A stretch of DNA of 32,000 nucleotides, from positions 840,001-872,000 of the forward strand of contig NZ_CP007536.1 of the NCBI RefSeq assembly GCF_000698785.1, given 5' to 3'. The translations under genes were made by a program, and so were the position numbers. This stretch comes from Nitrososphaera viennensis EN76 (lineage in GTDB: Archaea > Thermoproteota > Nitrososphaeria > Nitrososphaerales > Nitrososphaeraceae). Numbering within the stretch: the stretch's first letter is position 1; every line of letters starts with the position of its first letter. This document shows positions 1 through 27,185 of the stretch, in pieces. The notes below the pieces were generated by a model. The model saw only the letters and a list, made by a program, of their open reading frames with translations, did no database searches and was not told the origin of the DNA.

Positions 1-231
1 GATGTGTATGCAGATCTGGTCCGTGACAGGATAGATGAGGTTCAGGATCTTGAAGTTCTTCATGCTTCCGTCCAGCTTTTCATAAAATGCCGGCATGGGT
101 ATGCCGGTGCCTGAAAGTTTCTGGAGGTAGTCGGAAAGGTGAGGGACCTTCCGGGCTATTTCAAGCAGTTTCTTGTCAATTATAGTAGTAGCAGAAGAAG
201 AAGCGCCAGAAGTCTTTGCTGCCAACTCCAC
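1..231 (-). CDS. arlI: Partial CDS (5' end only, open to the window edge): probable archaellum ATPase ArlI/FlaI N-terminus
   Basis: Absent from the ORF track because it runs off the window. My manual minus-strand translation starts at GTG 231..229, with an in-frame stop just upstream at 264..262. It gives VELAAKTSGASSSATTIIDKKLLEIARKVPHLSDYLQKLSGTGIPMPAFYEKLDGSMKNFKILNLIYPVTDQICIHI. From memory, the xDYLxKL ... IYxVxDxxxIHI layout resembles the N-terminal domain of crenarchaeal FlaI. Only 77 codons are visible and no Walker motifs are in view. Confidence 0.4.
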   Translation of the reverse strand, partial: MELAAKTSGASSSATTIIDKKLLEIARKVPHLSDYLQKLSGTGIPMPAFYEKLDGSMKNFKILNLIYPVTDQICIHI

Positions 232-332
232 GACTGCGATGCACCTGTGAGAAAAGACCGATCAGGCGGGTTAAAACAAATAGTATGTAAAAAATCAGCC
301 ACTAAGAAGAAGCGGCCCTTGGGCAGGCACGG

Positions 333-1244
333 TCAAGCGCCACCCGTCTTGTTGAACATGAACTTGAAGGCCGCTATCAGTGACTGGTTGTTGGTGTAAA
401 AGCCGCAAGACTCTTGCTTCTTGCTTGGCGCCGGGCGGCTGTTCAGCAGGATTATCATTTCCTGGTCGTCGACTATGACAAAGTCTACAGGCGTGCTTGC
501 GCCGTCGACAACCTTCAGGCCCACTGCCCTCATGTCGGCTTCTGCCCCCTCCTCGTTTATGAATTTCGACATCTTGGAGCACGACGTGTGGAGCCTCACT
601 TTTACGCCCTTTTCCGCCAGGCCGAACAGGGCGTCGGTCATTTCAGAATAATAAAGGTCCACCATGTACCTGTCAGAAAGGAGCACGGAAGCCTCGGCTT
701 TTGCCGCAGACAGCATCCGGGCTATCTTGGCGTGCACTGGATCTTCGCCGACTATGACCTGGTAGCTTTCCTTGCCGTCCTGCTCGGGCATCACCATGCC
801 CTCGACTATGCTGTTTATCATGCTCTGGTGCTCGTCTTTGTTTTCCGACACGGCGCGCAGGGCATTCTGCTTCGCCCTGACCAGGCAGTCAACGGCCTCG
901 GTGTACGGCAGCGCATAGTATTTCTGCGGCCTGTCAAACGTGGAAAGGACGACTCCCTTTGAAAGAAGGTTTGAAAGGTAGTGGTATGTTTCCGTGCGGC
1001 CTATTCCAGTGTACTTGGACACGTCGGTCGCAGTGGAGTGCTTGCGGATCATAAGAAAGAGCAGGATCCTCGCTTCATTCAGGCTGAGATCCAGCTTTTG
1101 CAAGTCAGGCAAGAGCTTCTTCTGGACGGCAAGGAAATACTTGGCAAACGCGTAGTCAATCTTGTTGCGCCCATAGATTGAGCCGTCCTCGATTTCAGAG
1201 AAATCGAGATCGACATCGTAGACCTTTTTGATTGATGAAGCCAT
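333..1244 (-). CDS. TrmB-family transcriptional regulator (wHTH plus TrmB-like C-terminal domain)
   Basis: The ORF 333..1397 contains LSLNEARILLFLMIRKHSTATDVSKYTGIGRTETYHYLSNLLSKGVVLSTFDRPQKYYALP, a TrmB-type winged helix. I prefer the ATG at 1244 (MASSIKKVYD...). The upstream 51 codons lie in AT-rich promoter-like sequence and read as low-quality protein. It is paralogous to 10767..11618. Confidence 0.75.
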   Translation of the reverse strand: MASSIKKVYDVDLDFSEIEDGSIYGRNKIDYAFAKYFLAVQKKLLPDLQKLDLSLNEARILLFLMIRKHSTATDVSKYTGIGRTETYHYLSNLLSKGVVLSTFDRPQKYYALPYTEAVDCLVRAKQNALRAVSENKDEHQSMINSIVEGMVMPEQDGKESYQVIVGEDPVHAKIARMLSAAKAEASVLLSDRYMVDLYYSEMTDALFGLAEKGVKVRLHTSCSKMSKFINEEGAEADMRAVGLKVVDGASTPVDFVIVDDQEMIILLNSRPAPSKKQESCGFYTNNQSLIAAFKFMFNKTGGA

Positions 1245-1431
1245 TATAGAAAGCCAATCTAGAAAAAAATTATTTAATACTTTGTAAGTAGAATAGCTAC
1301 ATACACCTAAATTCGGCACATAGCGTATTTTATTCGTCATTCGGCTAATTTTTATGGCCACATCCTGCCAGTTTGCAGGTTTTTCTCTGAAAAACACGTA
1401 TGCACAAGACTTTACATGCTGGTAAACTATG

Positions 1432-3172: not shown

Positions 3173-4633
3173 ATGGTCTCCCCACCCAACCTTTTTTTAA
3201 AATTTAACCTATCTCAATTACCACTAAAGATATCCGGCACAGGCTTGAGAGCAGCGATTGCCGGTGCGGCTACCGGAGCGTTTTACGTTGCCGCTAACTT
3301 CATGCTTCCGGACTACTTTGCGTTCAGCAAGTTTGATCCGGCCTACATCACGGGTTCTGATAAAGCCGCTTATTCAGTACTATTGTTTTGTCCTGCAATA
3401 GCAGGCGCGGCCGGCTTTGTGCTGCCGCCGCACGTCAAAAACGTGATTCAGATCTTCTCCAAACTCAAGCCATCTCGCGGGGCTGCAAGTGCGCCAAGCC
3501 CGGCCCAGCCAGAGGCGGCGGCTCCTCCCGCTGCCGCAGGACAGGTTGAAGCCGCCGCAGCGCCGGCTCCCACGCTGTTGGCACAGGAGCAGGCGGGCAC
3601 GCAGCTGGCAGCGCCACCGCCACCGCAGCAGGCATCCAGTAGCAGCATGGAAGACATGGTGACCATGATAGAAGACATGGTGGGCAAGAAGGTCGGCGAA
3701 GTCGTGACCGACGTAACCAACATGAAGAACGAGGTGACATCTTTCAGGGACGACATAAGCAAGCTGAAAGAGGACATACGGAACCTCACGCTGTCGTTTG
3801 AATCGTCCCTGACCGACCTCAAGGCGTTCCAGGCGGAGATGGTGAACCCCTTGAATTTCATGCGCAAGTACTTTGAGACGATGGACATCAAGAACCTGTC
3901 AGATCCCATTCAGGGTCTGCCCCACGTTGAACTGCCGTCAAAGACTCAGGTCCAGCACCAAAAAAAGGAAGGACAGGCGGCAGCAGAGCAAAAACCGGAA
4001 GTTCATGATGGTGATGACAATGACGACGATAAAAAAATCGATACTATTCCGGCCGAAAGTCCCCTTGCGGACGACGATGACGGCGACGAGGATGATGCTG
4101 GCAGAACCTCGCTTGGAACGCCGCATGCAGCTGTCGAGAACGCGTTCCAGCACCTGCTCCCTCAGGCGGAAAGACTCGGAGGCGAAATGCCAGTGGTAAG
4201 CTACAAGCAGCAGGACAGCGGAAGTGGGAATGGAAATGGAAACGGGAACGGGAATGGCCACGCAAACCCGCTTTTTCAGGGCAACCTGACCCTCGGCAAA
4301 CTGATGTCGATGGTCTCGATCCTGGACAAAATGCTGCGCGACATGGGACCCGACGAGCTTGAGGCCCTTATTGAGCAGTACAGGCAGTTTGGCCTCAAGG
4401 CAGAGGACGAGGCGGCGATATACAAGGTCGTAGGCATGCTGAAGGATTTCGGCATGTCTGCCGATGAGGCCATGGTCAGGCTCTACAGGCTTGGCCAGAT
4501 AATGGGCATCAAGGACGCCCAGGCAGACCTGGAGTACGCCAAGCTGAAGGCAAGGGCAAAACCATCAAAGAGCGCATCATCCGCGGCAAGCCGCGTAGGA
4601 ACAACGGCATACAGGAGGGGCGCGGATGGTTAG
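3173..4633 (+). CDS. Archaellum accessory protein: membrane-anchored ArlX-position protein with FlaC-like coiled coil and FlaD/E-like C-terminal region
   Basis: Two hydrophobic N-terminal segments are present (LRAAIAGAATGAFYVAANFML and AAYSVLLFCPAIAGAAGFVLPP). They are followed by an Ala/Pro-rich linker. A heptad-like segment VTNMKNEVTSFRDDISKLKEDIRNLTLSFESSLTDLKAFQAEMVNPLNF resembles the FlaC_arch pattern ending in NPF. An acidic block DGDDNDDD...DDDDGDEDD and an SGSGNGNGNGNGNG repeat follow. The C-terminal helical region is MVSILDKMLRDMGPDELEALIEQYRQFGLKAEDEAAIYKVV. Its stop overlaps the arlG start (4626..4633). Confidence 0.55.
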   Translation: MVSPPNLFLKFNLSQLPLKISGTGLRAAIAGAATGAFYVAANFMLPDYFAFSKFDPAYITGSDKAAYSVLLFCPAIAGAAGFVLPPHVKNVIQIFSKLKPSRGAASAPSPAQPEAAAPPAAAGQVEAAAAPAPTLLAQEQAGTQLAAPPPPQQASSSSMEDMVTMIEDMVGKKVGEVVTDVTNMKNEVTSFRDDISKLKEDIRNLTLSFESSLTDLKAFQAEMVNPLNFMRKYFETMDIKNLSDPIQGLPHVELPSKTQVQHQKKEGQAAAEQKPEVHDGDDNDDDKKIDTIPAESPLADDDDGDEDDAGRTSLGTPHAAVENAFQHLLPQAERLGGEMPVVSYKQQDSGSGNGNGNGNGNGHANPLFQGNLTLGKLMSMVSILDKMLRDMGPDELEALIEQYRQFGLKAEDEAAIYKVVGMLKDFGMSADEAMVRLYRLGQIMGIKDAQADLEYAKLKARAKPSKSASSAASRVGTTAYRRGADG

Positions 4634-5660: not shown

Positions 5661-6365
5661 ATGATAAGCACGGTCTCTACCAGCAACGAGGAGGTCGACA
5701 GGCAGTTTGGAGGAGGGCTCCCGCTTCCGTCGCTTGTGCTCATAGAGGGCGAGCACGGCACTGGCAAGAGCGCGCTCACGGCGCAGTTCATGAAGGGCAT
5801 GCTTGATTCAAGGCTGAAGGTGCTCTACATCACGACAGAGAGCAACATCAAGGACTACATCGCAAAGATGAAAAAGATAACGTTTGATTTCAGCCATCCC
5901 TTCCTGCAGAACAGGCTCTCGATATTGCAGGTGCAGGCCGACGGCATAACCTGGTCCAAAAAACTGTCAAAATATCTGCTTCCGGTGGTGAGCAGGTACA
6001 TGAGCATAAACCTGAAAAAGTACGACGTGACTGTCATTGATTCCCTGTCCGTCCTCAGCATGCACTCTGACGCAAACACCGTGATGGACTTTTTCACGCG
6101 CTGCAAGTACCTGGTCTCAAACGGCATGTCCATCGTCATGACGCTCCACCCAGGCGCCGTCAGCGAGGACGTGGCGCTGCGCATAAGGTCTACGTGCGAC
6201 GGCTATCTGAAGATCCAGAACGCCATCGTGAGCGGCAGGAGCGTCAAGGTCATGGAGGTCGTAAAGCTCATCGGCTCGTCGTCGCAGGTGACGTCGCAGT
6301 TCAGCTTTGAAGTTGACCAGAACTTCGGGATCAAGATCGTGCCGATATCGATGGCCAACGCATGA
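5661..6365 (+). CDS. arlH: Archaellum ATP-binding protein ArlH/FlaH (RecA/KaiC-like)
   Basis: Walker A GEHGTGKS lies in the context GGGLPLPSLVLIEGEHGTGKSALTAQF. The size (234 aa) is typical and the gene sits next to arlJ. Confidence 0.85.
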   Translation: MISTVSTSNEEVDRQFGGGLPLPSLVLIEGEHGTGKSALTAQFMKGMLDSRLKVLYITTESNIKDYIAKMKKITFDFSHPFLQNRLSILQVQADGITWSKKLSKYLLPVVSRYMSINLKKYDVTVIDSLSVLSMHSDANTVMDFFTRCKYLVSNGMSIVMTLHPGAVSEDVALRIRSTCDGYLKIQNAIVSGRSVKVMEVVKLIGSSSQVTSQFSFEVDQNFGIKIVPISMANA

Positions 6366-6392: not shown

Positions 6393-7895
6393 ATGAAAAC
6401 TGCCATCGACCTGAAAAAAATCCTGCCCTTTCTCCCCGGCCAGTCCTCCAAGTCAAGCACCCTTGACGAGACGCTGGTGTACTTTGTGACATTCCTCTTC
6501 TCCCTCTCCACAGCCGAGATCTCGCCTTCAAACCTGTTAAAGACCGCCGGCTCTGTCGGGTACGGGATATATTCAAAGACAGTAATGGAGATCCACAACC
6601 TCGGCCTCAGGTGGCAGTACGGCATCGCAACGGCAGCCGGCATAGTCGCCTCGCAGGTTCCAAACGAGGAGTTCAAGCTGTTCCTCATGAAGCTTGAGCA
6701 GGTCATAAGGCTTGGAGACAGCCTGCGCGATTTCCTAAAGAGCGAGATGGCGGCCGTCGTCAACGCCTACGCGTCAGCGTACGAGAGGAGCATGGAGTCG
6801 CTCAAGCTCCTTCTCGGCATGTTCTCCACCTTGATGTCGACAGCGTCTTTCATGATAGCCGCCATGATGATAATGTCGATGATAGGCGGCGGAGACAGCT
6901 CAACCATAATCGTGGTGGCGTTTGCCACGATAGCAGGCCTCGGGGCGTTTGCCCTCATGATGTACATGATATTCCCAAAGGACAAGCTGATGAATGAAAA
7001 CGGGGAGCACCTGAAGCAGTTCAAGAAGATCTTTTTGCCGTCGGTGGGCGCCAGCGTGGCCATAGGCATTGCGCTCTTGTTTGTCCCGCAGGTTTCAAGG
7101 GAGATTATCGTAAGCGCCGTCGGGGGCCCGCTCATCTTTCCGGGATTTGTCGCCAAGAGGGTTGAAGGCAGGATCAAAAAGCTGGACGAGTCGTTTCCTT
7201 CGTTCATACGCCACCTCACAGAGATATACGCCACGGTGGGCTCGCTCGGGCAGGCGCTCAAGACGGTGATGAAGAGTGATTTTGGCGGCCTGTCGACGCA
7301 TGCAAGATCCATGCTGAACAGGGTGCTGAACAGGGTAACAATGGAGCAGGCCTTTGAACTCTTTTCTACAGACACCGGGAACGAGCTCATCACGGCAAGC
7401 AACAAGGTGATATCCATCTCGATGATCAAGGGGGCCAACATGATCGAGGTCGGAGAGACGCTGGCGCAGCTTACGTCCAGGTTCAACGACCTGAGGAAAA
7501 AGAGGCAGCAGGTGTCAAAGGCGTTTGAGACTACAGTCCTCATCCTGCACGTCCTGACCGTGGCAGTCATGAGTTTCATGAAGGGCGTCTTTCAGTTCTT
7601 TGCAGACATATTCGGCCACCTGGACAAGAGCCTTGGGGCGAGCGTCATCCAGCCCATCCCGCCGGACATGATGAACATTGTGCTTCCGCTCATGATAGTT
7701 GCCCTGGCGTGCATAAACGGGCTCGTGATCAAGATCTCCCAGGGAGGGCTGTACAAGACAATGTGGTTCAACATCGGCCTCTTGCTTGTCATAGGCGGAG
7801 TAGTATCGTTTGGCGTGCAGCAATTCGTAGGCCAGATGTTTGGCGACATCATAGGCTCAAACCCGTTTGGCGACCTTGCCACCCAGGCTCCATAA
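6393..7895 (+). CDS. arlJ: Archaellum platform membrane protein ArlJ/FlaJ (T2SS F-like)
   Basis: This is a 500-aa polytopic membrane protein with cytoplasmic helical domains between hydrophobic blocks (MFSTLMSTASFMIAAMMIMSMIGG, IIVVAFATIAGLGAFALMMYMIF, C-terminal TM cluster). It is the last gene of the arl operon. Confidence 0.85.
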   Translation: MKTAIDLKKILPFLPGQSSKSSTLDETLVYFVTFLFSLSTAEISPSNLLKTAGSVGYGIYSKTVMEIHNLGLRWQYGIATAAGIVASQVPNEEFKLFLMKLEQVIRLGDSLRDFLKSEMAAVVNAYASAYERSMESLKLLLGMFSTLMSTASFMIAAMMIMSMIGGGDSSTIIVVAFATIAGLGAFALMMYMIFPKDKLMNENGEHLKQFKKIFLPSVGASVAIGIALLFVPQVSREIIVSAVGGPLIFPGFVAKRVEGRIKKLDESFPSFIRHLTEIYATVGSLGQALKTVMKSDFGGLSTHARSMLNRVLNRVTMEQAFELFSTDTGNELITASNKVISISMIKGANMIEVGETLAQLTSRFNDLRKKRQQVSKAFETTVLILHVLTVAVMSFMKGVFQFFADIFGHLDKSLGASVIQPIPPDMMNIVLPLMIVALACINGLVIKISQGGLYKTMWFNIGLLLVIGGVVSFGVQQFVGQMFGDIIGSNPFGDLATQAP

Positions 7896-7920: not shown

Positions 7921-7936
7921 CCCCGCGCTTTTTTGC
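7921..7936 (+). terminator. Candidate oligo-T terminator of the archaellum operon
   Basis: CCCCGCGCTTTTTTGC has a T6 run at 7929..7934, about 30 nt after the arlJ stop. Archaeal RNA polymerase terminates at oligo-T tracts. Confidence 0.35.
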
Positions 7937-7982
7937 GTCTCATTTGCCTCAAGTGTATGTAAATCGCTTGACTTGCTTGAGG

Positions 7983-7990
7983 ATATAAAA
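7983..7990 (+). promoter_or_regulatory. Candidate TATA box (ATATAAAA) for the 8011..10177 module
   Basis: Its centre lies about 24 nt upstream of the ATG at 8011. That spacing is typical of leaderless archaeal transcripts. Confidence 0.4.
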
Positions 7991-8010: not shown

Positions 8011-8295
8011 ATGAAGGAGATAATGAACGCGGTGACTGACACGTTCAGCATTTTCGGGCCTAACACGTCAAAGGTCCTGATGTTCCACCTTGAAAACCAA
8101 TTTGGCCTAAAGCCTGAGGACATCCCAGATAAGCCGGAACACTTCCACGCTATTTTGCAGCAGCTCTTTGGCAACTATGCGTCTTCACTCGAGCTAGCCA
8201 TCTGCAAGCAGGTAAGGAGTTCCAACCCATCGCACAATTCAGAATTCGTGCGGTTCTTGGAGCACCACGCGCTACAGGAGGTAAAGGCAGCTTGA
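8011..8295 (+). CDS. Small helical protein of unknown function (same family as 17975..18226)
   Basis: The 94-aa product VTDTFSIFGPNTSKVLMFHLENQFGLKPEDIPDKPEHFHAILQQLFGNYASSLELAICKQV aligns by eye with LEKALAVFGDPGKEYIMEDLVRHGIKFDSRSHYTLAQVQDALSILGEDGAALVIGRV. The stop overlaps the next start. Confidence 0.5.
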   Translation: MKEIMNAVTDTFSIFGPNTSKVLMFHLENQFGLKPEDIPDKPEHFHAILQQLFGNYASSLELAICKQVRSSNPSHNSEFVRFLEHHALQEVKAA

Positions 8296-8582
8296 GCACG
8301 TCCATAGATATAGTCAACATAATCCTGTCGTCTGTCACGACGGTCGAGCTCATGAAGCTCTTCCAAAAGAACCCAAACCTCATTGACACGATGGAAGGCG
8401 TGGCCAAGAGAATAGGGCAGACTGCGATTCAGGTAGAAAACGACGTTGACAAGCTGGTCGACCTTGGAGTCTTGATCAAGATACCATCAGGCAAGACAAC
8501 CGTGCTCGTGCTTGACAAAAAGAGGGCCCACGATATAGACACAAAGATCGAGAACATGCTGGGCCGGCAGGGAGGTGCCTGA
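8292..8582 (+). CDS. Small putative winged-helix protein
   Basis: The 96-aa product starts at TTG, which overlaps the upstream TGA. The pattern ELMKLFQKNPNLIDTMEGVAKRIGQTAIQVENDVDKLVDLGVLIKIPSGKTTVLVLD fits helix-turn-helix plus a beta wing. The call is structural inference only. Confidence 0.45.
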   Translation: MSTSIDIVNIILSSVTTVELMKLFQKNPNLIDTMEGVAKRIGQTAIQVENDVDKLVDLGVLIKIPSGKTTVLVLDKKRAHDIDTKIENMLGRQGGA

Positions 8583-8586
8583 AGAA

Positions 8587-9339
8587 ATGGCAAAAGGTCG
8601 CGCCCCGACAGGCATTTCGGAATTTGACGCCATGCTCAACGGCGGGTTCATGAAGGGAGACTGCGTCCTGGTCACAGGAGCGGCAGGAACGGGCAAGACC
8701 AACCTGGCGCTACAGTTCCTCTACAACGGCGTGGTAAAGTACGGCGAAAATGCGGTGTACGTCACGTTTGAGCAGATGCCGGACCAGATCTACCGCGACG
8801 CAAAAAACCTCGGCATGAACCTGGAAAAGCTCGAGGAAGAAAACAGGCTCAAGGTCATATCCACGTCGCCTGACGTCCTCGTCCAGAACCAGGACATGAT
8901 CTCCGAGTTTTCGTCCGAGCGGGCTGAGAGAATAGTCATAGACTCTATAAGTTACTTTGAGCTCTCGCGCAAGAATTCTGTCAGGGACGAGATATACACG
9001 CTCATAAGATATCTAAAGACAAAGGGCGCGACTTCGATGCTCCTGCACGAGGCCCAGGCAGACACTACGCACGGCTTTGGGCCCTACGACCACGGCCTCA
9101 GCTTCCTGGCAGACACGGTCGTCGTGCTCAAGTATGTGGAGATCGAGTCGGCCATCAGGCGCGCAGTTGCGATACTAAAGATGCGCGGAAGCGACCACGA
9201 AAAGACGCTCCGGGAGATCAGGATAACGTCCAAAGGGATCGAAGTCGGCGGATCGTTTGAGCAGTGGGAAGGAGTGTTGAGTGGCGCCCCGCACAAGTCC
9301 TTTGCCCTAAGAGTATCAAAGGCGTTTGGCGGGATCTAA
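8587..9339 (+). CDS. Single-domain KaiC-like / RecA-superfamily ATPase
   Basis: PTGISEFDAMLNGGFMKGDCVLVTGAAGTGKTNLALQFLYNG carries the Walker A motif. TFEQ supplies the catalytic Glu context and ERIVIDSISYFE is the Walker B. RRAVAILKMRGSDHEKTLREIRITSKGIEV is the typical KaiC-family C-terminus. I prefer the ATG at 8587, preceded by GGAGGTG; the ORF track uses GTG at 8575. Confidence 0.85.
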   Translation: MAKGRAPTGISEFDAMLNGGFMKGDCVLVTGAAGTGKTNLALQFLYNGVVKYGENAVYVTFEQMPDQIYRDAKNLGMNLEKLEEENRLKVISTSPDVLVQNQDMISEFSSERAERIVIDSISYFELSRKNSVRDEIYTLIRYLKTKGATSMLLHEAQADTTHGFGPYDHGLSFLADTVVVLKYVEIESAIRRAVAILKMRGSDHEKTLREIRITSKGIEVGGSFEQWEGVLSGAPHKSFALRVSKAFGGI

Positions 9340-9355
9340 GCACGGGTAAAATGGG

Positions 9356-10177
9356 ATGACGCCAATGCTTTCATCATCCCACCAGACCCATTCCAGAAAA
9401 TGGCAGGCGCTTGTCTTCGTGCTGGCAATAGCGTGGTCCTCTGCAGGCATCCTTATTGCAACCGCCATTACGGGCGATTTTGAGAGCCGCCATGCAAGCA
9501 GCGTGCTTTTCCTGGCCTCTGGCGCCATGAGCCTGATAGTATTCTTTCAGGAAATGTACGCGTTTTACGTCACAAATAGCAGGAGGATCCTGTGGATGTC
9601 TGCAGGGTTCTTTACGCTTGGCATAGGCATGATAGGAAATGCCATAACCACTGGCGGGAGCCTGGATGTCGCCCTTGACTCTTACGTGAGCGCTTCGGAG
9701 CTGTTCAGAGGGACAAGCGAATTTGCGGCAGCGATTTTCATCCTGCTTGGCACCTTGCGGTCAGACAAGAGCATCCGCGAGAACATGGAATTCAAGGCAT
9801 ACATCCTGGTCGCCGTGATCATGGTCACCACGGCGTCCATCATAATTTACATCTCGACGGTCCAGGAAAGCCTTTCGGTGCCACTTTACAGCAGCCAGTA
9901 CGGGTGGAGCCCCTTTTCCCTGTACATAGAATTGCACGTCCTGTTATTTTTTGCGGTAACCTGTACCGTTTATGTCAGCATCCGCAAAAAGAACAACAAC
10001 AGCCAGATCCTCTTTTGGTTCATCATCGGTTTCGTGCTTTTGACATTCTCGGAGCTGTCCTTTACCATGGACAAGGTTCTCGACCTTGGCGCGTCAAGCT
10101 CGCTGGTTTGGGTTGGAAGATTTTTCCTGCTTGCAGGCTTTATGACTTTTGTACTGGGCCTCAACAGGACTCGCTGA
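9356..10177 (+). CDS. Polytopic membrane protein (about 7-8 TM), unknown function, sensor-like
   Basis: The 273-aa product has regularly spaced hydrophobic segments (WQALVFVLAIAWSSAGILIATAI, VLFLASGAMSLIVFF, ILWMSAGFFTLGIGMIGNAI, FAAAIFILLGTL, AYILVAVIMVTTASIIIYI, IELHVLLFFAVTCTVYV, ILFWFIIGFVLLTF, VWVGRFFLLAGFMTFVLG). I recognise no soluble output domain. Confidence 0.6.
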   Translation: MTPMLSSSHQTHSRKWQALVFVLAIAWSSAGILIATAITGDFESRHASSVLFLASGAMSLIVFFQEMYAFYVTNSRRILWMSAGFFTLGIGMIGNAITTGGSLDVALDSYVSASELFRGTSEFAAAIFILLGTLRSDKSIRENMEFKAYILVAVIMVTTASIIIYISTVQESLSVPLYSSQYGWSPFSLYIELHVLLFFAVTCTVYVSIRKKNNNSQILFWFIIGFVLLTFSELSFTMDKVLDLGASSSLVWVGRFFLLAGFMTFVLGLNRTR

Positions 10178-10309
10178 CAAAGCAGAGATAAGCAGTAAAA
10201 TCAGTCAGCCAACTATCGTTACAGAGGCATTTTTCGGACTAAAAGCATTAAGCGTGCCCGCATATACTGGTATTGTTAGTTACCAGTTAATGTCATCTTT
10301 AAATGTAGA

Positions 10310-10318
10310 TTTAAATAA
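10310..10318 (+). promoter_or_regulatory. Candidate TATA element (TTTAAATAA; TTTAAAT is duplicated at 10298..10304)
   Basis: It lies about 30 nt upstream of the ATG at 10347 in an AT-rich spacer. This supports the shorter start for the next CDS. Confidence 0.3.
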
Positions 10319-10346
10319 TGGTTCGTATAATCATTTACATACAGAA

Positions 10347-10742
10347 ATGGTGGACGAGGTGCGGTTGGCGGCCTTGGTAGTTATTGTCACCGTAGCCGTA
10401 CCCGTGTTCCTCATCACAGGCGAGGCCAAGGACCTGCTATCCGGCTCTTCTTTGCCAGTCCCCCGTTCCGCTATTGCGATGTCCGGCGACAATAATTCCT
10501 TACTATCATCGTCATCTGTAGAACAACAAAATTTTGCAAAGGACAACCCGGAACAGGCGCTCTATGCCATGTATGACGCCCAGGCAGTGGAAGAACTGGA
10601 TCGCTGTTTTAGCTCTCCAGAGAAAGGAATGTGCGACGGGTCGGTGGACCTCATAGTCGATAGCTGCAAAAACTCACAAGTGGACCTGGTTGTGTGCCAT
10701 GATCCAAGGATAGAGCAGCTTGTCGCTTCCAAGAAGGCCTGA
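10347..10742 (+). CDS. Small signal-anchored or secreted Cys-containing protein, unknown function
   Basis: I trimmed the ORF 10149..10742 to the ATG at 10347, giving MVDEVRLAALVVIVTVAVPVFLITGE (N-terminal hydrophobic helix). A Ser-rich linker and a C-terminal part with four Cys follow (CFSSPEKGMCDG...DSCKNSQVDLVVCHD). The upstream 66 codons span an AT-rich, promoter-like stretch. Confidence 0.4.
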   Translation: MVDEVRLAALVVIVTVAVPVFLITGEAKDLLSGSSLPVPRSAIAMSGDNNSLLSSSSVEQQNFAKDNPEQALYAMYDAQAVEELDRCFSSPEKGMCDGSVDLIVDSCKNSQVDLVVCHDPRIEQLVASKKA

Positions 10743-10766: not shown

Positions 10767-11618
10767 TTACTTGGTATTTTCAAAGAATGTCTTGAAGACG
10801 CTGATGATCGGGAGGTTGTTGGTGTAAAAGCCGTGTGGTTTTGCCTTGTCGGACTTGCCGCCGCCAAGCAGCATCACTACTATGTCCTTGTTGTCGACCA
10901 GCACGAAATCCACCATCTTTTCTTCAATTCCGCTGTTCACTACAATGTTGTTGCCTCCTAGGTTTGTGCCGATGTAGTCCTGCACATTCTTGCACGAGGT
11001 TTGCAGGCGTAACGTGATGCCTTTTTTTGCCAGCCCCATCAGATCATCTACGATGCCGGTGTGGTAAAAACTGGCAAACGTCTTTTCGCTGGCAAGCAGC
11101 ATAATCTCCTCACGCGCATCAAGAATCACCCGTCTGACAGTCGAGATTATGGAATTTTCCCCGCTCAGTATCTGGTAGCTCTCTTTCTCTTCGACAGACG
11201 AGAGCGACATGCTGCAGGACAGCCTCTCCAGCATGCTGCAGTAGTCGACCTTGGATTCAGCGAGACGCTGCAATGCCCCGCGGCGTGTCTCGATCAAGTG
11301 GTCCAGGGCCTTTTCGAGCGGAAGCGCATAGTATTTCTGCGGCCTGTCAAAAGTGGAAAAGACCACTCCTTTTCGCATGAGGCCGGTTATGTAGTTGTAG
11401 ATTTCTGTGCGGCCAATGTCGTTGTAGCGCGAAATGTCAGCTGCGGTGGACTCCTTGCGGATTATAAGATAGACAAGAATCTTGGCCTCCTTCACGCTCA
11501 GGCCCAGCTCCTGGAGGCCCGCGACCACTTCATCATATATTGCGTAAATTGACGGATCACAGGCTGAAGTGCCAAATTTTTGCAGAAATCCGCTCATCTG
11601 TCCAAATATTGGCTCCAT
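10767..11618 (-). CDS. TrmB-family transcriptional regulator (paralogue of 333..1244)
   Basis: It contains LSVKEAKILVYLIIRKESTAADISRYNDIGRTEIYNYITGLMRKGVVFSTFDRPQKYYALP. It shares the C-terminal GFYTNN...F motif with the first copy. Confidence 0.75.
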   Translation of the reverse strand: MEPIFGQMSGFLQKFGTSACDPSIYAIYDEVVAGLQELGLSVKEAKILVYLIIRKESTAADISRYNDIGRTEIYNYITGLMRKGVVFSTFDRPQKYYALPLEKALDHLIETRRGALQRLAESKVDYCSMLERLSCSMSLSSVEEKESYQILSGENSIISTVRRVILDAREEIMLLASEKTFASFYHTGIVDDLMGLAKKGITLRLQTSCKNVQDYIGTNLGGNNIVVNSGIEEKMVDFVLVDNKDIVVMLLGGGKSDKAKPHGFYTNNLPIISVFKTFFENTK

Positions 11619-11736: not shown

Positions 11737-11931
11737 TCAGTTGTAGAACTCTCCAAGGACAGGCGCAGCAGTCATTTTTTCCTGCCAGCATTTGACGCAA
11801 TAGTCCAGGCCATCATAAAAGATCTCTGCGGCTTTGTCACACACGCAGCATCGCCCTTCTTCTTCCTCCATGAGGAGCCACTTGCAGCTTTGCACTACCA
11901 CTACACTGTTTGCAAGTAAAAGCAAAGACAT
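11737..11931 (-). CDS. Small putative zinc-ribbon protein
   Basis: CCVCDKAAEIFYDGLDYCVKCWQEK gives a CxxC...CxxC pair. I trimmed to the ATG at 11931 so it does not overlap the peptidase gene. It lies immediately downstream of that gene on the same strand. The opposite-strand ORF 11668..11919 looks less protein-like. Confidence 0.3.
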   Translation of the reverse strand: MSLLLLANSVVVVQSCKWLLMEEEEGRCCVCDKAAEIFYDGLDYCVKCWQEKMTAAPVLGEFYN

Positions 11932-11944
11932 GTTTGTGTGTGCG

Positions 11945-12685
11945 CTAAAAGGCCCCTGCAAAGGCAGAAAGAAAGACCCGTGCAAGGTCGCCGATGAATA
12001 CCATTGCCACTAGGCCTGCAAGCATGTACACGAGGAAGGGGATGCCAGGCATGACCCATACGCCCACACGAGATTCAAAGGGCGTATCCTCTGCAGGCTT
12101 TAGCGAAAAATCAAATTTCCTGACGCCGCCACAGTTTTTTTCCATCAAGAAAGCAAACCCGGAACCGTTCGAGTGGTGCCCAAGCATGACTGCCAGCGCC
12201 TTTCTCGCCGCCGTCTCCCCTTCCATGCCGGCAAAAAGTGCTGACGGGTGCCTTGCCCTGTATCGCGCGTTTTTCACGATGTTGATAACCAAGTGTGCAA
12301 AAGACAGCACGGCCGCATTTGAGAGAAGCGCAAGTGGCGACAGGGAGTGAGCTTCTTTTGCAGAGATGCCTTCCAGGACAAGCCTGCCGTCGTACGACGG
12401 CAGGATGGCAGCAAAGACTGCCAGCGCAAGGGCGTCGGCTCCCCCAAACAGCCCCGTTCTGTAAAGCAGATAGGAGGCCGCGCCGCCAAGGCCCATCGAG
12501 AGCGCGACAATCGGAATGTCCATCCGCGCAAAGTCAAAAAAGTAGAGCACGGCCGCGACGGCTCCAAACGCCATCCACAGGCGATCGTCCACGTGCCGCC
12601 GCTTCATGTCCATGGCCGCGGCTATTCCAAACATGCCAAAGGCTACGCAGACACGCACTAGTGCAAGGTCGGCGGCACCATACAA
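11945..12685 (-). CDS. arlK: Class III signal peptidase (preflagellin/prepilin peptidase, A24 family; FlaK/PibD type)
   Basis: It is a polytopic membrane protein with two conserved Asp contexts about 57 residues apart: AAAMDMKRRHVDDRLW and GLFGGADALALAVFAAILP (GxGD-like). Both archaellins in this window carry matching RRG| cleavage motifs. Confidence 0.8.
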   Translation of the reverse strand: MYGAADLALVRVCVAFGMFGIAAAMDMKRRHVDDRLWMAFGAVAAVLYFFDFARMDIPIVALSMGLGGAASYLLYRTGLFGGADALALAVFAAILPSYDGRLVLEGISAKEAHSLSPLALLSNAAVLSFAHLVINIVKNARYRARHPSALFAGMEGETAARKALAVMLGHHSNGSGFAFLMEKNCGGVRKFDFSLKPAEDTPFESRVGVWVMPGIPFLVYMLAGLVAMVFIGDLARVFLSAFAGAF

Positions 12686-16876: not shown

Positions 16877-17806
16877 TTAAAAATTGATCGCTTGTATGGC
16901 AGCCGGAGCGGCAAGGCGCGGCGCGAGCCCCCTCTTCTCCTTTCTCCTCCCACGCACGGCATTAGACGATGATGATGAGGATATTATCATCAGCTCGCGC
17001 TGGCCCGTCCGGCGCGACGCGTTGCAGTTTATCAGGCGCTCCACCCTTGCAGTTCTTATCGCAAAGTTGCAGTACAGGTCGCGTATCCTGCGCGTGTCTG
17101 AATTAGAGAGGATCACGGTGCACCCAAGGTCGTGCAGGCGCACAAATTCGCTGGCAAGCTCCACGTGGTCTTCCCAGCCAAAACTTTCACGCGTGTAATC
17201 TACAAAATTTGCAGTCTTGGTCACCGGCAGGTAGGGAGGATCAAAGTACACGACATCGCCTCTTGCACACAGCCTTGTAGATTGGGTGTAGCTTGCGTGC
17301 GCTATGCTCACGCCGTCGCGCGCAAGCACGGCAGCGGCAGAGAAAAGCGCCTCTCGGTTGCATATCGTCGGGCGCTCGTACGTGCCGTGCGGGACGTTGA
17401 ACCTGCCGGCCCGATTAACGCGAAAGAGGCCGTTGTAGCACGTCCGGTTCAGGAAGATCATCCTTGCCGCCTGCTCGACCCTGCTTCTTGCAGGCTCCAG
17501 GTCGCGTACAGAGTAATAGTATTTTTCCCGCCCTGCATAGTAATTTCGCTGGTGCTCTTCCAGTACTTGTACCAGTTCGCCAGTCCTGTCTCGAACCTGC
17601 AGGTACACGTTAATCAATTCATGGTTGGAATCTGAAAGCACCGCTTCAAAGCGCGGCCTTGACTGCGCAAGGTGGAAGAACAGCGCTCCGCTCCCAAGAA
17701 AGGGCTCAAAGTAGCGGTCAAGCCTTTCAGGGCAGAACCGGGCAAGCATGTGCACGAGACGGCGCTTGCCGCCAGCCCATTTCAGGAAAGGCCCCGCGTT
17801 TTCCAA
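16877..17806 (-). CDS. dam: DNA adenine methyltransferase, Dam/D12 class (N6-adenine)
   Basis: It has FLKWAGGKRRL, the AdoMet-binding motif EPFLGSGALFF and the catalytic motif VVYFDPPY. The start is TTG. The unusual C-terminal tail is ISSSSSSNAVRGRRKEKRGLAPRLAAPAAIQAINF. Confidence 0.85.
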   Translation of the reverse strand: MENAGPFLKWAGGKRRLVHMLARFCPERLDRYFEPFLGSGALFFHLAQSRPRFEAVLSDSNHELINVYLQVRDRTGELVQVLEEHQRNYYAGREKYYYSVRDLEPARSRVEQAARMIFLNRTCYNGLFRVNRAGRFNVPHGTYERPTICNREALFSAAAVLARDGVSIAHASYTQSTRLCARGDVVYFDPPYLPVTKTANFVDYTRESFGWEDHVELASEFVRLHDLGCTVILSNSDTRRIRDLYCNFAIRTARVERLINCNASRRTGQRELMIISSSSSSNAVRGRRKEKRGLAPRLAAPAAIQAINF

Positions 17807-24216: not shown

Positions 24217-25353
24217 TTAATTATCTGCTTGCTTTGCGGCATTTTGAATCATAGTTATCCACTTGTTCTCTCCTTCGACCTTTATTCCTGCGATCTCTGC
24301 TGGTGTGTGGTTTCCTAGACTCTCATGCTCTCTAAAGTAGTTGTGGTAAATCTGATAGCCTGCCAGTACCGGCGTGTCCATCTTCTTTAATCCCCTCATG
24401 ACTTTTTCTCTGTCTCTAATCTCGCCATTCATTCTCTCCATCTTGTTATTGTTCTTGTCACCTTTCAGGTGGATATGCTGAATGTGCTTTGTGCGTGGTA
24501 CGGCATGAGTGAAATACTCTCTCATGTACGCGTTGTGAAAGTTGGGCGCTCCATCGCTAATCAGAGTCATAGGCTTTTTGCCCGCAATTTCTCGCCCCTC
24601 ATTGAATAGCGGCCGTACGTCTTGGGTGTACTTCGTGTCTGCCACCTGCTGCGCTATCCAAAAGCGCGTTTCGTCGTCCATGAGAGCATAAAGATACTTT
24701 GTGTTGCCCTTGATTTTGAGGTAAAGCTCGTCCGTTCTCCAGGTGTCAGAGACGTTTGGAGTAATCTTCTCAAGGTACTTCTCCATGAGGCCGACGTACT
24801 TCTTTATCCACCTATAGATTGCCATATGGCTAGCCTTGTAGCCTTGGAGCTTGATGAACCGCTGCACGTTCCTAAGAGATTCTCCTGAAAAGTAGAGCTG
24901 CATTGCGCCCGTTATCACCTGCGGCGGCGCTCTCATCCCCTCAAATCCTACATTGATAGTGAAATAGCGTTTACAGTCCTTGCAGTTGTACTTTTGAATG
25001 TCGCCGTACTTGTTGTGGCGTACGCCATCTCTCACGATGTTTTGAGAATTACAGAAACGGCAGTTAAGAGACGAGATAGGTGCAATGACCTTGACGCTGG
25101 CCTGTACCTCTTTGCGCAGCTCTATGCTGTACTCGACAGCCCAGATGTGCTTGCACTTGGCGCCGCGATAGTAATGATCTCTGCAAGCGCATTTCCATCC
25201 GCTTTCAGTTGCCACAATCACGTAAGCGCCGTTTCCAGATTGTGACTTGACAGAATAGGTGTGCTCGTCAATCCTTGAGACTGCGCCCTTTGTATGAACA
25301 ATCTTTTGTGCCTTTTCTTCACGGGTGAGTTGGAACGGTTGCTCGGGTGTCAT
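24217..25353 (-). mobile_element. IS6/IS240-like DDE transposase gene with N-terminal SWIM zinc finger and Zn ribbon (IS termini not identified)
   Basis: The 378-aa product has a SWIM-type finger, WKCACRDHYYRGAKCKHIWAV (CxC...CxH). A Zn ribbon follows, CRFCNSQNIVRDG...YNCKDCKRYF. The DDE core is WRTDELYLKIKG...YLYALMDDETRF (D), LISDGAPNFHNAY (D) and NNKMERMNGEIRDREK (E). I found no convincing terminal inverted repeats. Confidence 0.8.
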
Positions 25354-25354
25354 T

Positions 25355-25424
25355 TTAGGTGCCTAACTTTACTATGTATTAGGCACCTATAAATACTTTA
25401 GGCGCCTACTTTATTAGGCACCTA
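25355..25424. promoter_or_regulatory. Array of four TAGG-NN-CCTA dyad motifs in the divergent transposase/AbrB-like spacer
   Basis: The four copies are TTAGGTGCCTAA (25355..25366), TTAGGCACCTA (25379..25389), TTAGGCGCCTA (25398..25408) and TTAGGCACCTA (25414..25424). Copy 1 is the reverse complement of copies 2 and 4. Copies 2 and 4 run into TATA-like sequence (CCTATAAATA, CCTATATGCA). Confidence 0.5.
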
Positions 25425-25429
25425 TATGC

Positions 25430-25678
25430 ATGTATAGATTAATGCAGTTACAAAGAAGGCTCAACCGTGTGGTTGGCGACAAAGAATACTCGAAATGGCA
25501 GGTGGTAATTCCGCCTGAAACCGTAGAAAAACTGGGCTGGAAAGAGGGTCAGGAGCTAGACGAGCAAGTGCAAGGCCACAAGCTCATACTATCTCCTGTG
25601 CCCGATAACAAAGACATGGTTGAACTTGCGCGTCAATCTATGTTGGCGAAGCACAGAAAACCAATTGGTGAAGCATAA
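25430..25678 (+). CDS. AbrB/SpoVT/MazE-like DNA-binding protein
   Basis: WQVVIPPETVEKLGWKEGQELDEQVQGHKLILSPV fits the swapped-hairpin SpoVT-AbrB pattern (IPxxxxxxLGxxxGdxl......g.i.l.P). The stop overlaps the next start as TAATG (25676..25680). Confidence 0.55.
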   Translation: MYRLMQLQRRLNRVVGDKEYSKWQVVIPPETVEKLGWKEGQELDEQVQGHKLILSPVPDNKDMVELARQSMLAKHRKPIGEA

Positions 25679-26091
25679 TGAGAATAGACCCGCCATTTGA
25701 CAAACAACTGACTGACTGGTACGAACACTCGACCTTCAAGCTTCGCAGATCGGCTCAGGAGATGCAGATATTGATAGATGAGGAAGAAAAGAAGAAGAAA
25801 AATAATCAAGGAGACTCTTTTCGGCTTCTAGTATATCAGATACTCAAAAATGATCGCTTATGGATGGCTCACCTCTACGAGGAAATGCACCTTGTATTGT
25901 TGATGGCGAACATTCTTTCGGTAGTGGTTTCGCAACTGCCTGATAAGAAAGTCCTTGAAAAATTCAAAACGCAACAACGAGAACTTATAGAAAATGTTCA
26001 GAAGAATCGGTCAATGGATGAGTACGGCAAGAAATTCGATACGTGGCTAGAAAGAGCGTTAAAGGATCAGCAAAAAGAGGATGTGATATAA
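25678..26091 (+). CDS. Hypothetical helical protein
   Basis: The 137-aa product is Lys/Glu-rich with one hydrophobic stretch (LVLLMANILSVVVS). It is coupled at both ends by TAATG overlaps. I recognise no family. Confidence 0.5.
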   Translation: MRIDPPFDKQLTDWYEHSTFKLRRSAQEMQILIDEEEKKKKNNQGDSFRLLVYQILKNDRLWMAHLYEEMHLVLLMANILSVVVSQLPDKKVLEKFKTQQRELIENVQKNRSMDEYGKKFDTWLERALKDQQKEDVI

Positions 26092-26384
26092 TGGACGAGT
26101 TTGAGGCTTGGCAGAAAATACTTGCAGCGCGGCAGCGCGTCGCTAGGATGGAAAGACTGAACCAAGAACTGTACGATCATCTAGGCGGAGCTATAATCTA
26201 CACATTAGAACATGCAAAGAAAAATCACATACCATTGCCAAATAGAGAAGCATTGTATAGGATGATTGAGAGGGCGCACCTTCTCATGAAGGAAATAAAC
26301 GGCTCATCCGACGAATTGTTACAGCCTGAAAAAAGGAGGTCATCCGACGACAAGTATACAGAACCTTTTTGGCAAACCTTCTAA
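26091..26384 (+). CDS. Hypothetical helical protein
   Basis: I trimmed the ORF 26043..26384 to the ATG at 26091 (MDEFEAWQKIL...), which forms a TAATG overlap with the upstream stop. I recognise no family. Its 3' part overlaps the open frame of the next feature. Confidence 0.45.
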   Translation: MDEFEAWQKILAARQRVARMERLNQELYDHLGGAIIYTLEHAKKNHIPLPNREALYRMIERAHLLMKEINGSSDELLQPEKRRSSDDKYTEPFWQTF

Positions 26385-26667
26385 GAAACAAAGACAGCGT
26401 GAAGTTCTCGATGCAAACCGCAGAAGGGGTAAAGCGGGTGAAGAAGAAATTAAGGCCAAGTACGAATGGAATGGCTATGAGGTCGAGCGAACAGGCAGAG
26501 GTCATGATTTCAGAGTTAGAAAACGTGACTTTTGGACGGGTCGTGTTACAGAATCAAAAGTTGTAGAAGTAAAGACGGGAAATGCAAAACTATCACCATT
26601 GCAAAGAAAAACAAAGAAGAAGAAAAGCAATTACAAAGTAGAACATGCTGATCCTTGGTTCTACTAA
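26299..26667 (+). pseudogene. Start-less open frame encoding a PD-(D/E)xK / Holliday-junction-resolvase-like nuclease motif (frameshifted gene or recoding candidate)
   Basis: This comes from my manual translation of the +1 frame relative to 26091..26384 and is not in the ORF track. It reads ...KKQRQREVLDANRRRGKAGEEEIKAKYEWNGYEVERTGRGHDFRVRKRDFWTGRVTESKVVEVKTGNAKLSPLQRKTKKKKSNYKVEHADPWFY*. The G.gE...l...GY.V.R.....D....(n)..VEVK......L...Q layout matches small restriction-endonuclease-fold nucleases. The frame has no ATG, GTG or TTG before the motif. An A6 run at 26329..26334 lies in the overlap. Confidence 0.35.
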
Positions 26668-27185
26668 TTGTCTGCTTTTACCGCGTTTTGGATTACCGTT
26701 ATCCATTTGTTTTCTCCCTGAACGGCTATCCCTGCCGCTTCCGCTGGTGTTATCCCTTTCAACGCTTCATGCGGGCGAAAATAATTGTGATAGAGTTGGT
26801 ATCCCTTCAGTACGACGGTATCCTGCTTTTTCAACCCGCGCATGACTTTCTCACGGTCACGGATTTCACCGTTAAACCTCTCCATCTTGTTGTTGTTCAT
26901 GTCGCCCTTGAAGGGGATGTGCTTGATGTGCTGTGTACGCGGTAGTGTGTGAGTCCAGAACTCCTTTTGGTACGCGTTGTGGAAGTTGCCCGCGCCGTCA
27001 GATATGATAGTCGCTGGCTTTTTGCCTGCAATGTCTTTGCCTTCCTTGAACAATGGCCTAACATCTTGAGTGTATTTTGTATCGGCTACCTGTTGCGCTA
27101 TCCAAAAGCGTGTTTCGTCGTCCATGAGGGCATAAAGGTACTTCGTGTTTCCCTTGATTTTCAGATAAAGCTCGCTTTATCTTTG
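26664..27185 (-). pseudogene. 5'-truncated, diverged second copy of the IS6-like transposase (C-terminal DDE half only)
   Basis: The ORF 26664..27125 reads MDDETRFWIAQQVADTKYTQDVRPLFKEGKDIAGKKPATIISDGAGNFHNAY...NNKMERFNGEIRDREKVMRGLKK. It is collinear with residues ~225-378 of 24217..25353. Homology continues upstream as ELYLKIKGNTKYLYAL and is then cut by an in-frame TAA near 27174..27176. The SWIM, Zn-ribbon and HTH parts and the first catalytic-Asp context are missing. Confidence 0.75.

Follow-up and report, generated by a model that had tools for sequence, protein, structure and literature searches.

Closest described systems

In a 2017 article in mBio, Makarova, Galperin and Koonin reportedly predicted inputs, adaptors and outputs around archaeal KaiC hubs. 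To our knowledge this proposal has gained little experimental support beyond ArlH and CirA, and nothing is known to us about motility regulation in ammonia-oxidising archaea. Here we describe a predicted KaiC-based regulatory cassette that adjoins the archaellum (arl) genes in a 32-kb stretch of Nitrososphaera viennensis EN76 (the window; coordinates are window positions unless another locus is named). This organism is an archaellated soil ammonia oxidiser (PMC4129164). Genes of KaiC families are reported to be frequent members or neighbours of operons for archaella and other type IV pili, and a pair of KaiC and a DEATH-like helical protein might replace KaiB (Makarova, Koonin & Albers 2016, PMC4858521). 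NitrOD5, which the literature assigns to the DEATH-like family, was defined as a thaumarchaeal output domain that stands alone or is fused to REC (Galperin et al. 2018, PMC5847659).

In Haloferax volcanii the KaiC-like protein CirA, whose gene belongs to the arl cluster, is a repressor of arl transcription that works together with the transcription factor CsmR. The cassette resembles this pair, which controls arl transcription and motility, in having a single-domain KaiC-like ATPase inside the arl cluster and a helix-turn-helix factor encoded nearby, and it may be analogous to CirA/CsmR. It differs in that CirA is transcribed alone and opposite to the arl genes, and in that CsmR is Lrp/AsnC-like and not translationally coupled to CirA; a MASE3 or NitrOD5 partner is not described there, and Haloferax belongs to another phylum. 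With the KaiC-hub modules the cassette shares a single-domain KaiC that is encoded alongside a small helical protein (labelled DEATH-like in the literature), DNA-binding partners and putative inputs. The kind of system was already predicted in 2016-2017, and the cassette adds another member. Its particular features, judged from the searchable literature, are a stand-alone MASE3 input, a dedicated protein family (g96) with KaiC fusions and a candidate DNA element; no paper that combines MASE3 with archaea was found in that literature.

ArlH, whose gene lies in this locus too, shares the RecA/KaiC fold and the Walker motifs with the cassette KaiC, and the presence of two KaiC-family ATPases agrees with an original prediction made for this DNA. 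ArlH differs in having neither a winged-helix nor a sensor partner, and the cassette KaiC is not an ArlH paralogue at the equivalog level: the two are 24-25% identical, and the cassette KaiC scores 40 bits on NF052589 against a cutoff of 215, a model on which the true ArlH (5661-6365) has 198.5 bits. With the KaiC of the cyanobacterial KaiABC system the cassette protein shares strong similarity to CI and CII, the catalytic Glu and the KMRGS motif, and in N. viennensis also a Ser at the position of S431, but there KaiC has two domains and is accompanied by KaiA and KaiB, whereas the cassette KaiC has one domain and Phe in place of T432, and its orthologues do not all keep the Ser. Bacterial sensor kinases and cyclases with MASE3 have the same polytopic domain (PF17159; the match to NF047874 is weak), whereas the protein here stands alone, without a fused kinase, PAS or GGDEF domain, and the transmitter would be KaiC. 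EarA in Methanococcus and Pyrococcus and Arn in Sulfolobus control arl genes transcriptionally via sites 5' of the B recognition element and TATA box. TACATA, the hexamer to which the euryarchaeal archaellum activator EarA binds, sits inside TTTACATAC, the conserved candidate element described below, a match that may be coincidental; domain scans of the module revealed no EarA, ArnA/B (FHA, vWA) or ArnR-type proteins.

A predicted four-gene operon downstream of arlJ

Region 8011-10177 is best explained as a four-gene operon with its own promoter that encodes a KaiC-based signal transduction pathway, and the four genes quite probably form one KaiC-based regulatory unit. The features of this region are as follows (aa, amino acids; nt, nucleotides).

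7929-7934, plus strand: T6 tract after arlJ, possible archaeal terminator
7955-7963, plus strand: GTATGTAAA element, candidate regulator site, 48-56 nt 5' of the g94 ATG
7983-7990, plus strand: putative TATA box ATATAAAA, 21-28 nt 5' of the g94 ATG
8011-8295, plus strand: g94, 94-aa all-helical protein of the NitrOD5/PH0832 family (PF11537), putative adaptor
8292-8582, plus strand: g96, 96-aa winged-helix protein, presumed DNA-binding output
8575/8587-9339, plus strand: single-domain KaiC-like ATPase (PF06745)
9356-10177, plus strand: MASE3, stand-alone polytopic membrane protein (PF17159), presumed input sensor
10347-10742, plus strand: g131, 131-aa N-terminally anchored protein with four Cys

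The original prediction had read tightly packed plus-strand genes 3' of arlJ, preceded by a T tract and a TATA-like box. All five of its open reading frames (ORFs) are present at or near the coordinates it gave, its overlaps and motifs are borne out, and the T6 tract and TATA-like box are as it described them. The g94 stop and the TTG start of g96 overlap by 4 nt (8292-8295), and MASE3 begins 16 nt past the KaiC stop, exactly the spacing predicted for the membrane protein gene. The predicted overlap of KaiC with its neighbour depends on the start codon: it holds, with 8 nt shared with g96, for GTG 8575, which yields the 254-aa KaiC annotated by NCBI (P0001), and is replaced by a 4-nt gap past the g96 stop for ATG 8587. 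The Met encoded by this ATG is invariant in orthologues, and ATG 8587 is the probable true start.

The four genes have ratios of nonsynonymous to synonymous substitution rates (dN/dS) of 0.06-0.20, with dS near saturation, which indicates purifying selection; KaiC is at 0.06-0.08 and g94 at 0.16-0.20. The fifth gene, g131, is also under purifying selection but less constrained (dN/dS 0.31). Chance ORFs would show far less selection than these genes do. The gene order g94-g96-KaiC-MASE3 is conserved in nine lineages. Gene fusion, translational coupling and the recurrence of the four roles in a distant lineage, both described below, argue that the genes form one functional system.

The KaiC-like ATPase

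The KaiC protein matches Pfam PF06745 at 181.2 bits (cutoff 26.6, E 2.7e-53). Its intact Walker A, Walker B and catalytic Glu had been noted before, and all three proved invariant in 13 aligned KaiC sequences (Walker A as GAAGTGKT, Glu66 in VTFEQ, and Walker B as VIDSIS with Asp123), as is KMRGS (K202-S206) in the arginine-finger region. A C-terminal tail, ...SKAFGGI, is also conserved. In the PDB the protein matches clock KaiC (E 2.2e-78) and gives one alignment with CI and another with CII of the 518-aa KaiC; with 250-254 aa it forms one domain and lacks the CI-CII duplication. The residue equivalent to S431 is Ser in N. viennensis and Ala in L035, P0008 and P0011, and that equivalent to T432 is Phe. 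No KaiA or KaiB domains were found among the window proteins scanned. A reading of the module as a defence system was rejected: PADLOC gives KaiC weak matches at the level of the P-loop alone (mad8, E 8.5e-7) and the other four proteins none.

The winged-helix protein and its tie to KaiC

The original prediction had guessed a winged helix for the 96-aa protein, correctly according to structure modelling. Because the g96 family profile has no significant match in a PDB sequence search (best E 0.18), the fold was called from an AlphaFold model built with 15 sequences, which has a predicted local distance difference test score (pLDDT) of 83.4 and the topology H-H-b-H-H-b-b-H. Foldseek matches this model to ArsR/SmtB and MarR regulators, among them AntR, CadC, NolR, CzrA and MarR proteins, with template modelling (TM) scores of 0.6-0.71 and probability 1.0. 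The model has the topology expected of a winged helix (H-b-H-H-b-b), and g96 is presumed to be a DNA binder of this type. It scores 17.1 bits on Pfam HVO_A0114 (PF25212), below the cutoff of 27.6, and six of nine g96-family members match PF25212 weakly (best E 2.6e-4); judging by these matches g96 is related to the HVO_A0114 family, yet outside it by the Pfam threshold.

A profile search among 1.84 billion proteins gave 140 cluster representatives of the g96 family, most of them 75-135 aa long. The long members (327-346 aa) carry an N-terminal g96 and a C-terminal KaiC domain in all six cases tested (E 1e-17 to 1e-34), and one family member has a weak KaiB-like match. Among the surveyed loci (numbered with the prefix L), L025, L027, L028 and L031 encode g96-KaiC fusions with a degenerate P-loop (DPGAGDEN), and in L027 and L028 an intact 249-aa KaiC gene follows the fusion gene. 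L027 encodes a winged-helix-KaiC fusion, then KaiC, then a polytopic protein of 263 aa and a protein of 114 aa recognised by the g94 profile: it has the same four parts in another order, in a distant archaeon and without arl genes. In L032 and L033 the g96 homologue precedes a PAS-PAS-GAF-DUF835 protein, and DUF835 weakly matches the KaiC-domain proteins scanned.

In 30 of 34 surveyed loci g96 is the gene immediately 5' of KaiC, and the same holds for L035, L039, L042 and L043; every locus with a close g96 homologue has the winged-helix-KaiC pair. We argue that the winged-helix protein is a KaiC-specific output and that a membrane or PAS/GAF element supplies the input. As a unit, the winged-helix/KaiC pair is old and portable; NitrOD5 and MASE3 were added to it within Nitrososphaerales.

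The putative adaptor, the MASE3 protein and g131

The helical nature predicted for the 94-aa protein was confirmed, and Pfam, profile and model now place it in the NitrOD5/PH0832 family. The N. viennensis protein scores above the gathering threshold of NitrOD5 (PF11537; 28.9 bits, cutoff 27, E 1.2e-6), its orthologues fall under that cutoff, and the family profile matches the solved PH0832 structure, PDB 2p9x (E 3.6e-4). An AlphaFold model from the single sequence (pLDDT 87.5) has 2p9x as its best Foldseek hit (TM 0.68, probability 1.0) and no other good match. In a death-fold test this single-sequence model matched just ASC pyrin domains (TM 0.22-0.27, E about 4), so DEATH-fold similarity was not reproduced in the fold search with it.

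The membrane protein, formerly described as having seven or eight transmembrane segments and no output domain, has six strong and about two weaker hydrophobic segments and can now be assigned to MASE3: it matches PF17159 at 43.2 bits (cutoff 31, E 4.4e-11) over 201 of 226 profile positions. It stops directly after its last membrane segment, and on the MASE3 sensor kinase model NF047874 it reaches 16 bits against a cutoff of 560, without a fused PAS/histidine-kinase output. MASE3 stands beside KaiC in nine lineages.

The small Cys protein g131, which had been counted among the genes of the module, fared differently. A homologue lies beside arlI in the cassette-less arl locus L040 (6152-6565, minus strand; 28% identity, E 1.7e-11), the gene is absent from L035, and it is preceded by a conserved AT-rich block of its own; it is probably an arl-locus accessory gene and not a cassette member. 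Its start is most likely ATG 10347, and its orthologue in L001 has 121 aa and 47% identity.

The promoter and a shared 9-mer

The motif ATAT(T/A)A(A/G)A at 7983-7990 is kept in every module promoter within the clade, and its position suggests that it functions as a TATA box. By the general geometry of archaeal promoters, a TATA box 21-28 nt before the ATG points to a dedicated promoter and a leaderless or near-leaderless transcript. Because the T6 tract is not conserved in the relatives L001 and L018, transcripts could also read through from arlJ. A scan for bacterial sigma-70 promoters and terminators, signals that have no bearing on an archaeon, stayed at background level.

The spacer between arlJ and g94 is variable except for the block GTATGTAAA-N10-CTTGCTT-N4-ATAT(T/A)A(A/G)A-N20-ATG, which varies little or not at all among five arl-linked lineages. 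The GTATGTAAA element, about 20 nt 5' of the TATA box, is identical in all five, has one mismatch in the cassette promoter of L039 and is exact in L042/L043, where no arl genes are seen. The window contains two further copies.

283-291, plus strand: second GTATGTAAA copy, in the arlI promoter region; reads TTTTACATAC toward arlI (minus strand)
10334-10342, minus strand: third GTATGTAAA copy, 5 nt 5' of the g131 ATG; reads ATTTACATAC toward g131

Three copies compare with 0.11 expected in the window, and none of 100 shuffles reaches three. Exact GTATGTAAA across 43 loci (~500 kb) is confined to cassette and arlI promoters (L001 1986 and 9384; L020 1482 and 9628; L042 1116). The arlI promoter block TTTTACATACTA...GTTTTAACCGC does not differ between the three species compared (window, L001 and L020), and the TACATAC core near g131 is conserved in L001 and L020. 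At the sequence level, nothing ties the cassette to the archaellum more strongly than this shared 9-mer.

The arlI gene is itself displaced. The interval between arlH and arlJ in the window lacks it; instead its 5' end, with the first ~70 codons (1-204, minus strand), lies at the left window edge, divergent from the gene for TrmB1. In relatives cheR comes after arlI, which in L001 occupies 267-1943. In the N. viennensis clade, arlI has been split off from arlH-arlJ and placed upstream, beyond TrmB1, whereas it adjoins arlJ in lineages whose ArlJ is ~47% identical (order H-I-J in L036, H-J-I in L038 and L040). Among the arl loci recovered, the presence of the cassette after arlJ coincides with the relocation of arlI.

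Distribution across archaea

A search with five g96 sequences returned 4 genome loci and 13 metagenome loci; N. viennensis, N. gargensis and N. evergladensis were not among the returns. The arrangement arlH-arlJ-g94-g96-KaiC-MASE3 is kept in six lineages (N. viennensis; L001/L019 with L002 and L003; L018; L020; L035; L039), followed by TrmB2 and FlaK where the contig is long enough. Across these arl-linked lineages ArlJ is 62-100% identical, ArlX is down to 41% and ArlF to 38%, and KaiC and g96 are 78-90% and 59-83% identical, respectively. The original prediction had also described the block as bracketed by TrmB-like paralogues and the archaellin peptidase, which we recovered as TrmB1, TrmB2 and FlaK.

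In the cassette lineages seen without arl genes, KaiC is 56-67% identical to the window KaiC and the G+C content is 41-46% (L004, L012, L042). Upstream of the cassette, L012-14 have a 564-aa TrmB-like gene directly adjacent and L042/43 a minus-strand ORF of 87 aa. L015-17 encode a 131-aa protein, g96, KaiC and a 114-aa membrane protein.

As a separate observation, long TrmB-family regulators (464-564 aa) lie directly 5' of g96/KaiC cassettes in non-arl surroundings (L012 1047-2741; L004 3284-4951; L025 6763-8169; L031 8212-9606), a placement that parallels TrmB1 and TrmB2 on either side of the arl-linked cassette. Beside TrmB and arl genes, L036 encodes two helical proteins of 94 and 96 aa (on the minus strand at 2151-2435 and 2537-2827); these were considered as g94 and g96 homologues and rejected, as they have no Pfam match and reach just E 0.04-0.11 with the g94 profile. 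The arl operon of L038 runs on into a che cluster.

Proposed pathway and alternative explanations

We propose that the stand-alone MASE3 protein would sense a membrane or envelope cue and alter the nucleotide or oligomeric state of the single-domain KaiC, which would act on its obligate partner g96, with g94 as adaptor; g96 would then change transcription. The likeliest targets would be the cassette's own promoter and that of the relocated arlI (motor ATPase) gene, both of which carry TTTACATAC. Having been drawn into the archaellum supercluster of the Nitrososphaera clade, the cassette would switch archaellation on or off. The analysis shows which genes are present, how they are ordered and conserved, their folds and catalytic motifs, the fusions of winged helix and KaiC, and the shared cis-element; beyond this we infer the physical contacts, the direction of the signal, the identity of the element binder and the effect on motility. 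Whether a sensor-to-transcription pathway has been recruited to archaellum control appears to us evenly balanced, and the archaellum may or may not, with equal plausibility, be the physiological target of the cassette. The complete membrane-to-promoter route, from MASE3 to KaiC and through the NitrOD5 adaptor to g96 on TTTACATAC, autoregulating the cassette and gating arlI, is tentative and on the whole doubtful.

Several points weigh against this pathway or its tie to motility. The full cassette occurs without any arl gene on the recovered DNA in L004/L005 (~7-10 kb searched), L012-14 and L042/43 (just ~1.2 kb visible upstream). In Nitrosomirales-type contigs (L006-L011, L021-L024; e.g. L006 9693-10756) the g96-KaiC pair stands alone between transketolase and transaldolase genes, in a non-oxidative pentose-phosphate cluster, which hints that the same core pair regulates carbon metabolism there. 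The deeper-branching thaumarchaeal arl operons, with ArlJ 47-48% identical (L036, L038, L040), have no cassette. Cassette and arl genes are seen together in six lineages, against three cassette lineages without arl genes in view and three arl loci without the cassette. Because synteny among close species extends to unrelated genes (a GFO oxidoreductase, acetyl-CoA synthetase), adjacency alone is weak evidence. In the arlB1/arlB2 promoters the element was sought and a near-match found at 1411-1420; L001 and L020 do not share this near-match, and co-regulation of the archaellin promoters is therefore unsupported. The element could be bound by g96, TrmB1 or TrmB2, its arlI-promoter copy might be a variant of a TATA box, and, given the residues at the S431 and T432 positions, a phospho-switch in KaiC is doubtful and its autophosphorylation uncertain. 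Of the motility-linked regulatory system in the original prediction, the conserved unit inside the arl locus stands, together with the 9-mer common to the arlI promoter; the unit is not specific to arl.

The same observations fit a general-purpose KaiC/winged-helix unit with non-motility targets that landed at the arlI/che relocation breakpoint and was kept by genomic inertia, the main alternative, which we consider possible, if unlikely. It would account for the cassette or its core pair in non-arl contexts, for loci with arlI beside arlJ and no cassette, and for whole-region synteny in close relatives, housekeeping genes included; the 9-mer in arl-less L042 further suggests that the element is primarily a feature of the cassette and not of arl. 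Inertia is harder to reconcile with a linkage that holds down to 62% identity in ArlJ and 41% in ArlX, with archaellum genes on both flanks, and with a cassette 9-mer that is found again, conserved, in the arlI promoter but at no other place in ~500 kb; the arl-linked CirA is a precedent on the side of recruitment. Alternatively, KaiC could act post-translationally on the motor, mixed with ArlH or gating ArlI, with MASE3 as a tether and the winged helix as autoregulatory only. ArlH is itself KaiC-like and modulates ArlI (bioRxiv 10.1101/2021.03.19.436134), both ATPases are encoded in one locus, and the conserved ...SKAFGGI tail could be a docking peptide. We regard this as improbable in view of the distance between KaiC and ArlH in identity and score given above, of an obligate partner that has a DNA-binding fold and is fused to KaiC domains elsewhere, and of cassettes in contexts without arl genes.

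A timer or oscillator, with g94 in place of KaiB and temporal instead of sensory control, seems very improbable. The best PDB matches are indeed clock KaiC, the S431-equivalent Ser is present in N. viennensis, DEATH-like proteins may stand in for KaiB (PMC4858521) and one g96-family member has the weak KaiB-like match, but KaiC is a single domain and not a CI-CII tandem, T432 is replaced by Phe and the Ser by Ala in several orthologues, neither KaiA nor KaiB is present among the window proteins scanned, and the membrane sensor domain speaks for signal input.

For the proposed sensor-to-transcription pathway, the locus is a compact, conserved test case that joins a KaiC with all its catalytic residues, a winged helix tied to it by fusions and a MASE3 domain otherwise known from bacterial kinases, and a candidate 9-bp target in two promoter classes only is a concrete handle. 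Of most use are the corrected part list, the g96-KaiC fusion evidence and a specific cis-element, open to testing, through which the cassette is linked to arlI. Should this link be true, it would explain the separation of arlI from arlHJ in this clade. The KaiC-plus-transcription-factor logic of Haloferax would then reach a second archaeal phylum. If the complete membrane-to-promoter route is true, the cassette would become the first archaellum regulator known from Thaumarchaeota, allowing a test of the KaiC-hub idea in vitro with a defined DNA target.

Layout of the archaellum locus and other observations

The remaining genes of the locus in the window are as follows.

333-1397, minus strand: TrmB1
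After TrmB1 and before the ArlX-like gene: two archaellins
3173-4633: ArlX-like protein, 486 aa (weak ArlX match, E 1e-4)
Between the ArlX-like gene and ArlH: archaellin-fold protein (156 aa) and ArlF (180 aa)
5661-6365: ArlH (270.7 bits against a cutoff of 194, NF004723)
6393-7895: ArlJ
10767-11618, minus strand: TrmB2, 3' of the five module genes
11945-12685, minus strand: FlaK-type peptidase

The ArlX-like protein contains a (GN)6 repeat as well as long stretches of low complexity, Ala/Pro-rich and acidic, and is only 41-58% identical among close relatives. Between arlB1 and arlB2 (2208-2272) lies a conserved inverted repeat, AAGTCCCGACCGA ... TCGGTCGGGACTT, with equivalents in L001 and L020; it is followed, directly 5' of arlB2, by a block of ~60 nt that is near-identical across species. 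The repeat and block could be an intergenic terminator, an attenuator, or an arlB2 promoter or leader. A conserved protein of 41-44 aa with the motif CCxC...CxxCW is encoded between TrmB2 and FlaK (11737-11871, minus strand; L001 13040-13165; L035 about 8240-8400); it has no Pfam match and is a possible zinc ribbon.

Synteny with the closest relatives stops past the acetyl-CoA synthetase gene. N. viennensis has a D12 adenine methyltransferase (16877-17806) at the place of cdvA in the relatives, and IS240-type transposase genes, one complete and one fragmentary, lie further along (24217-27125).

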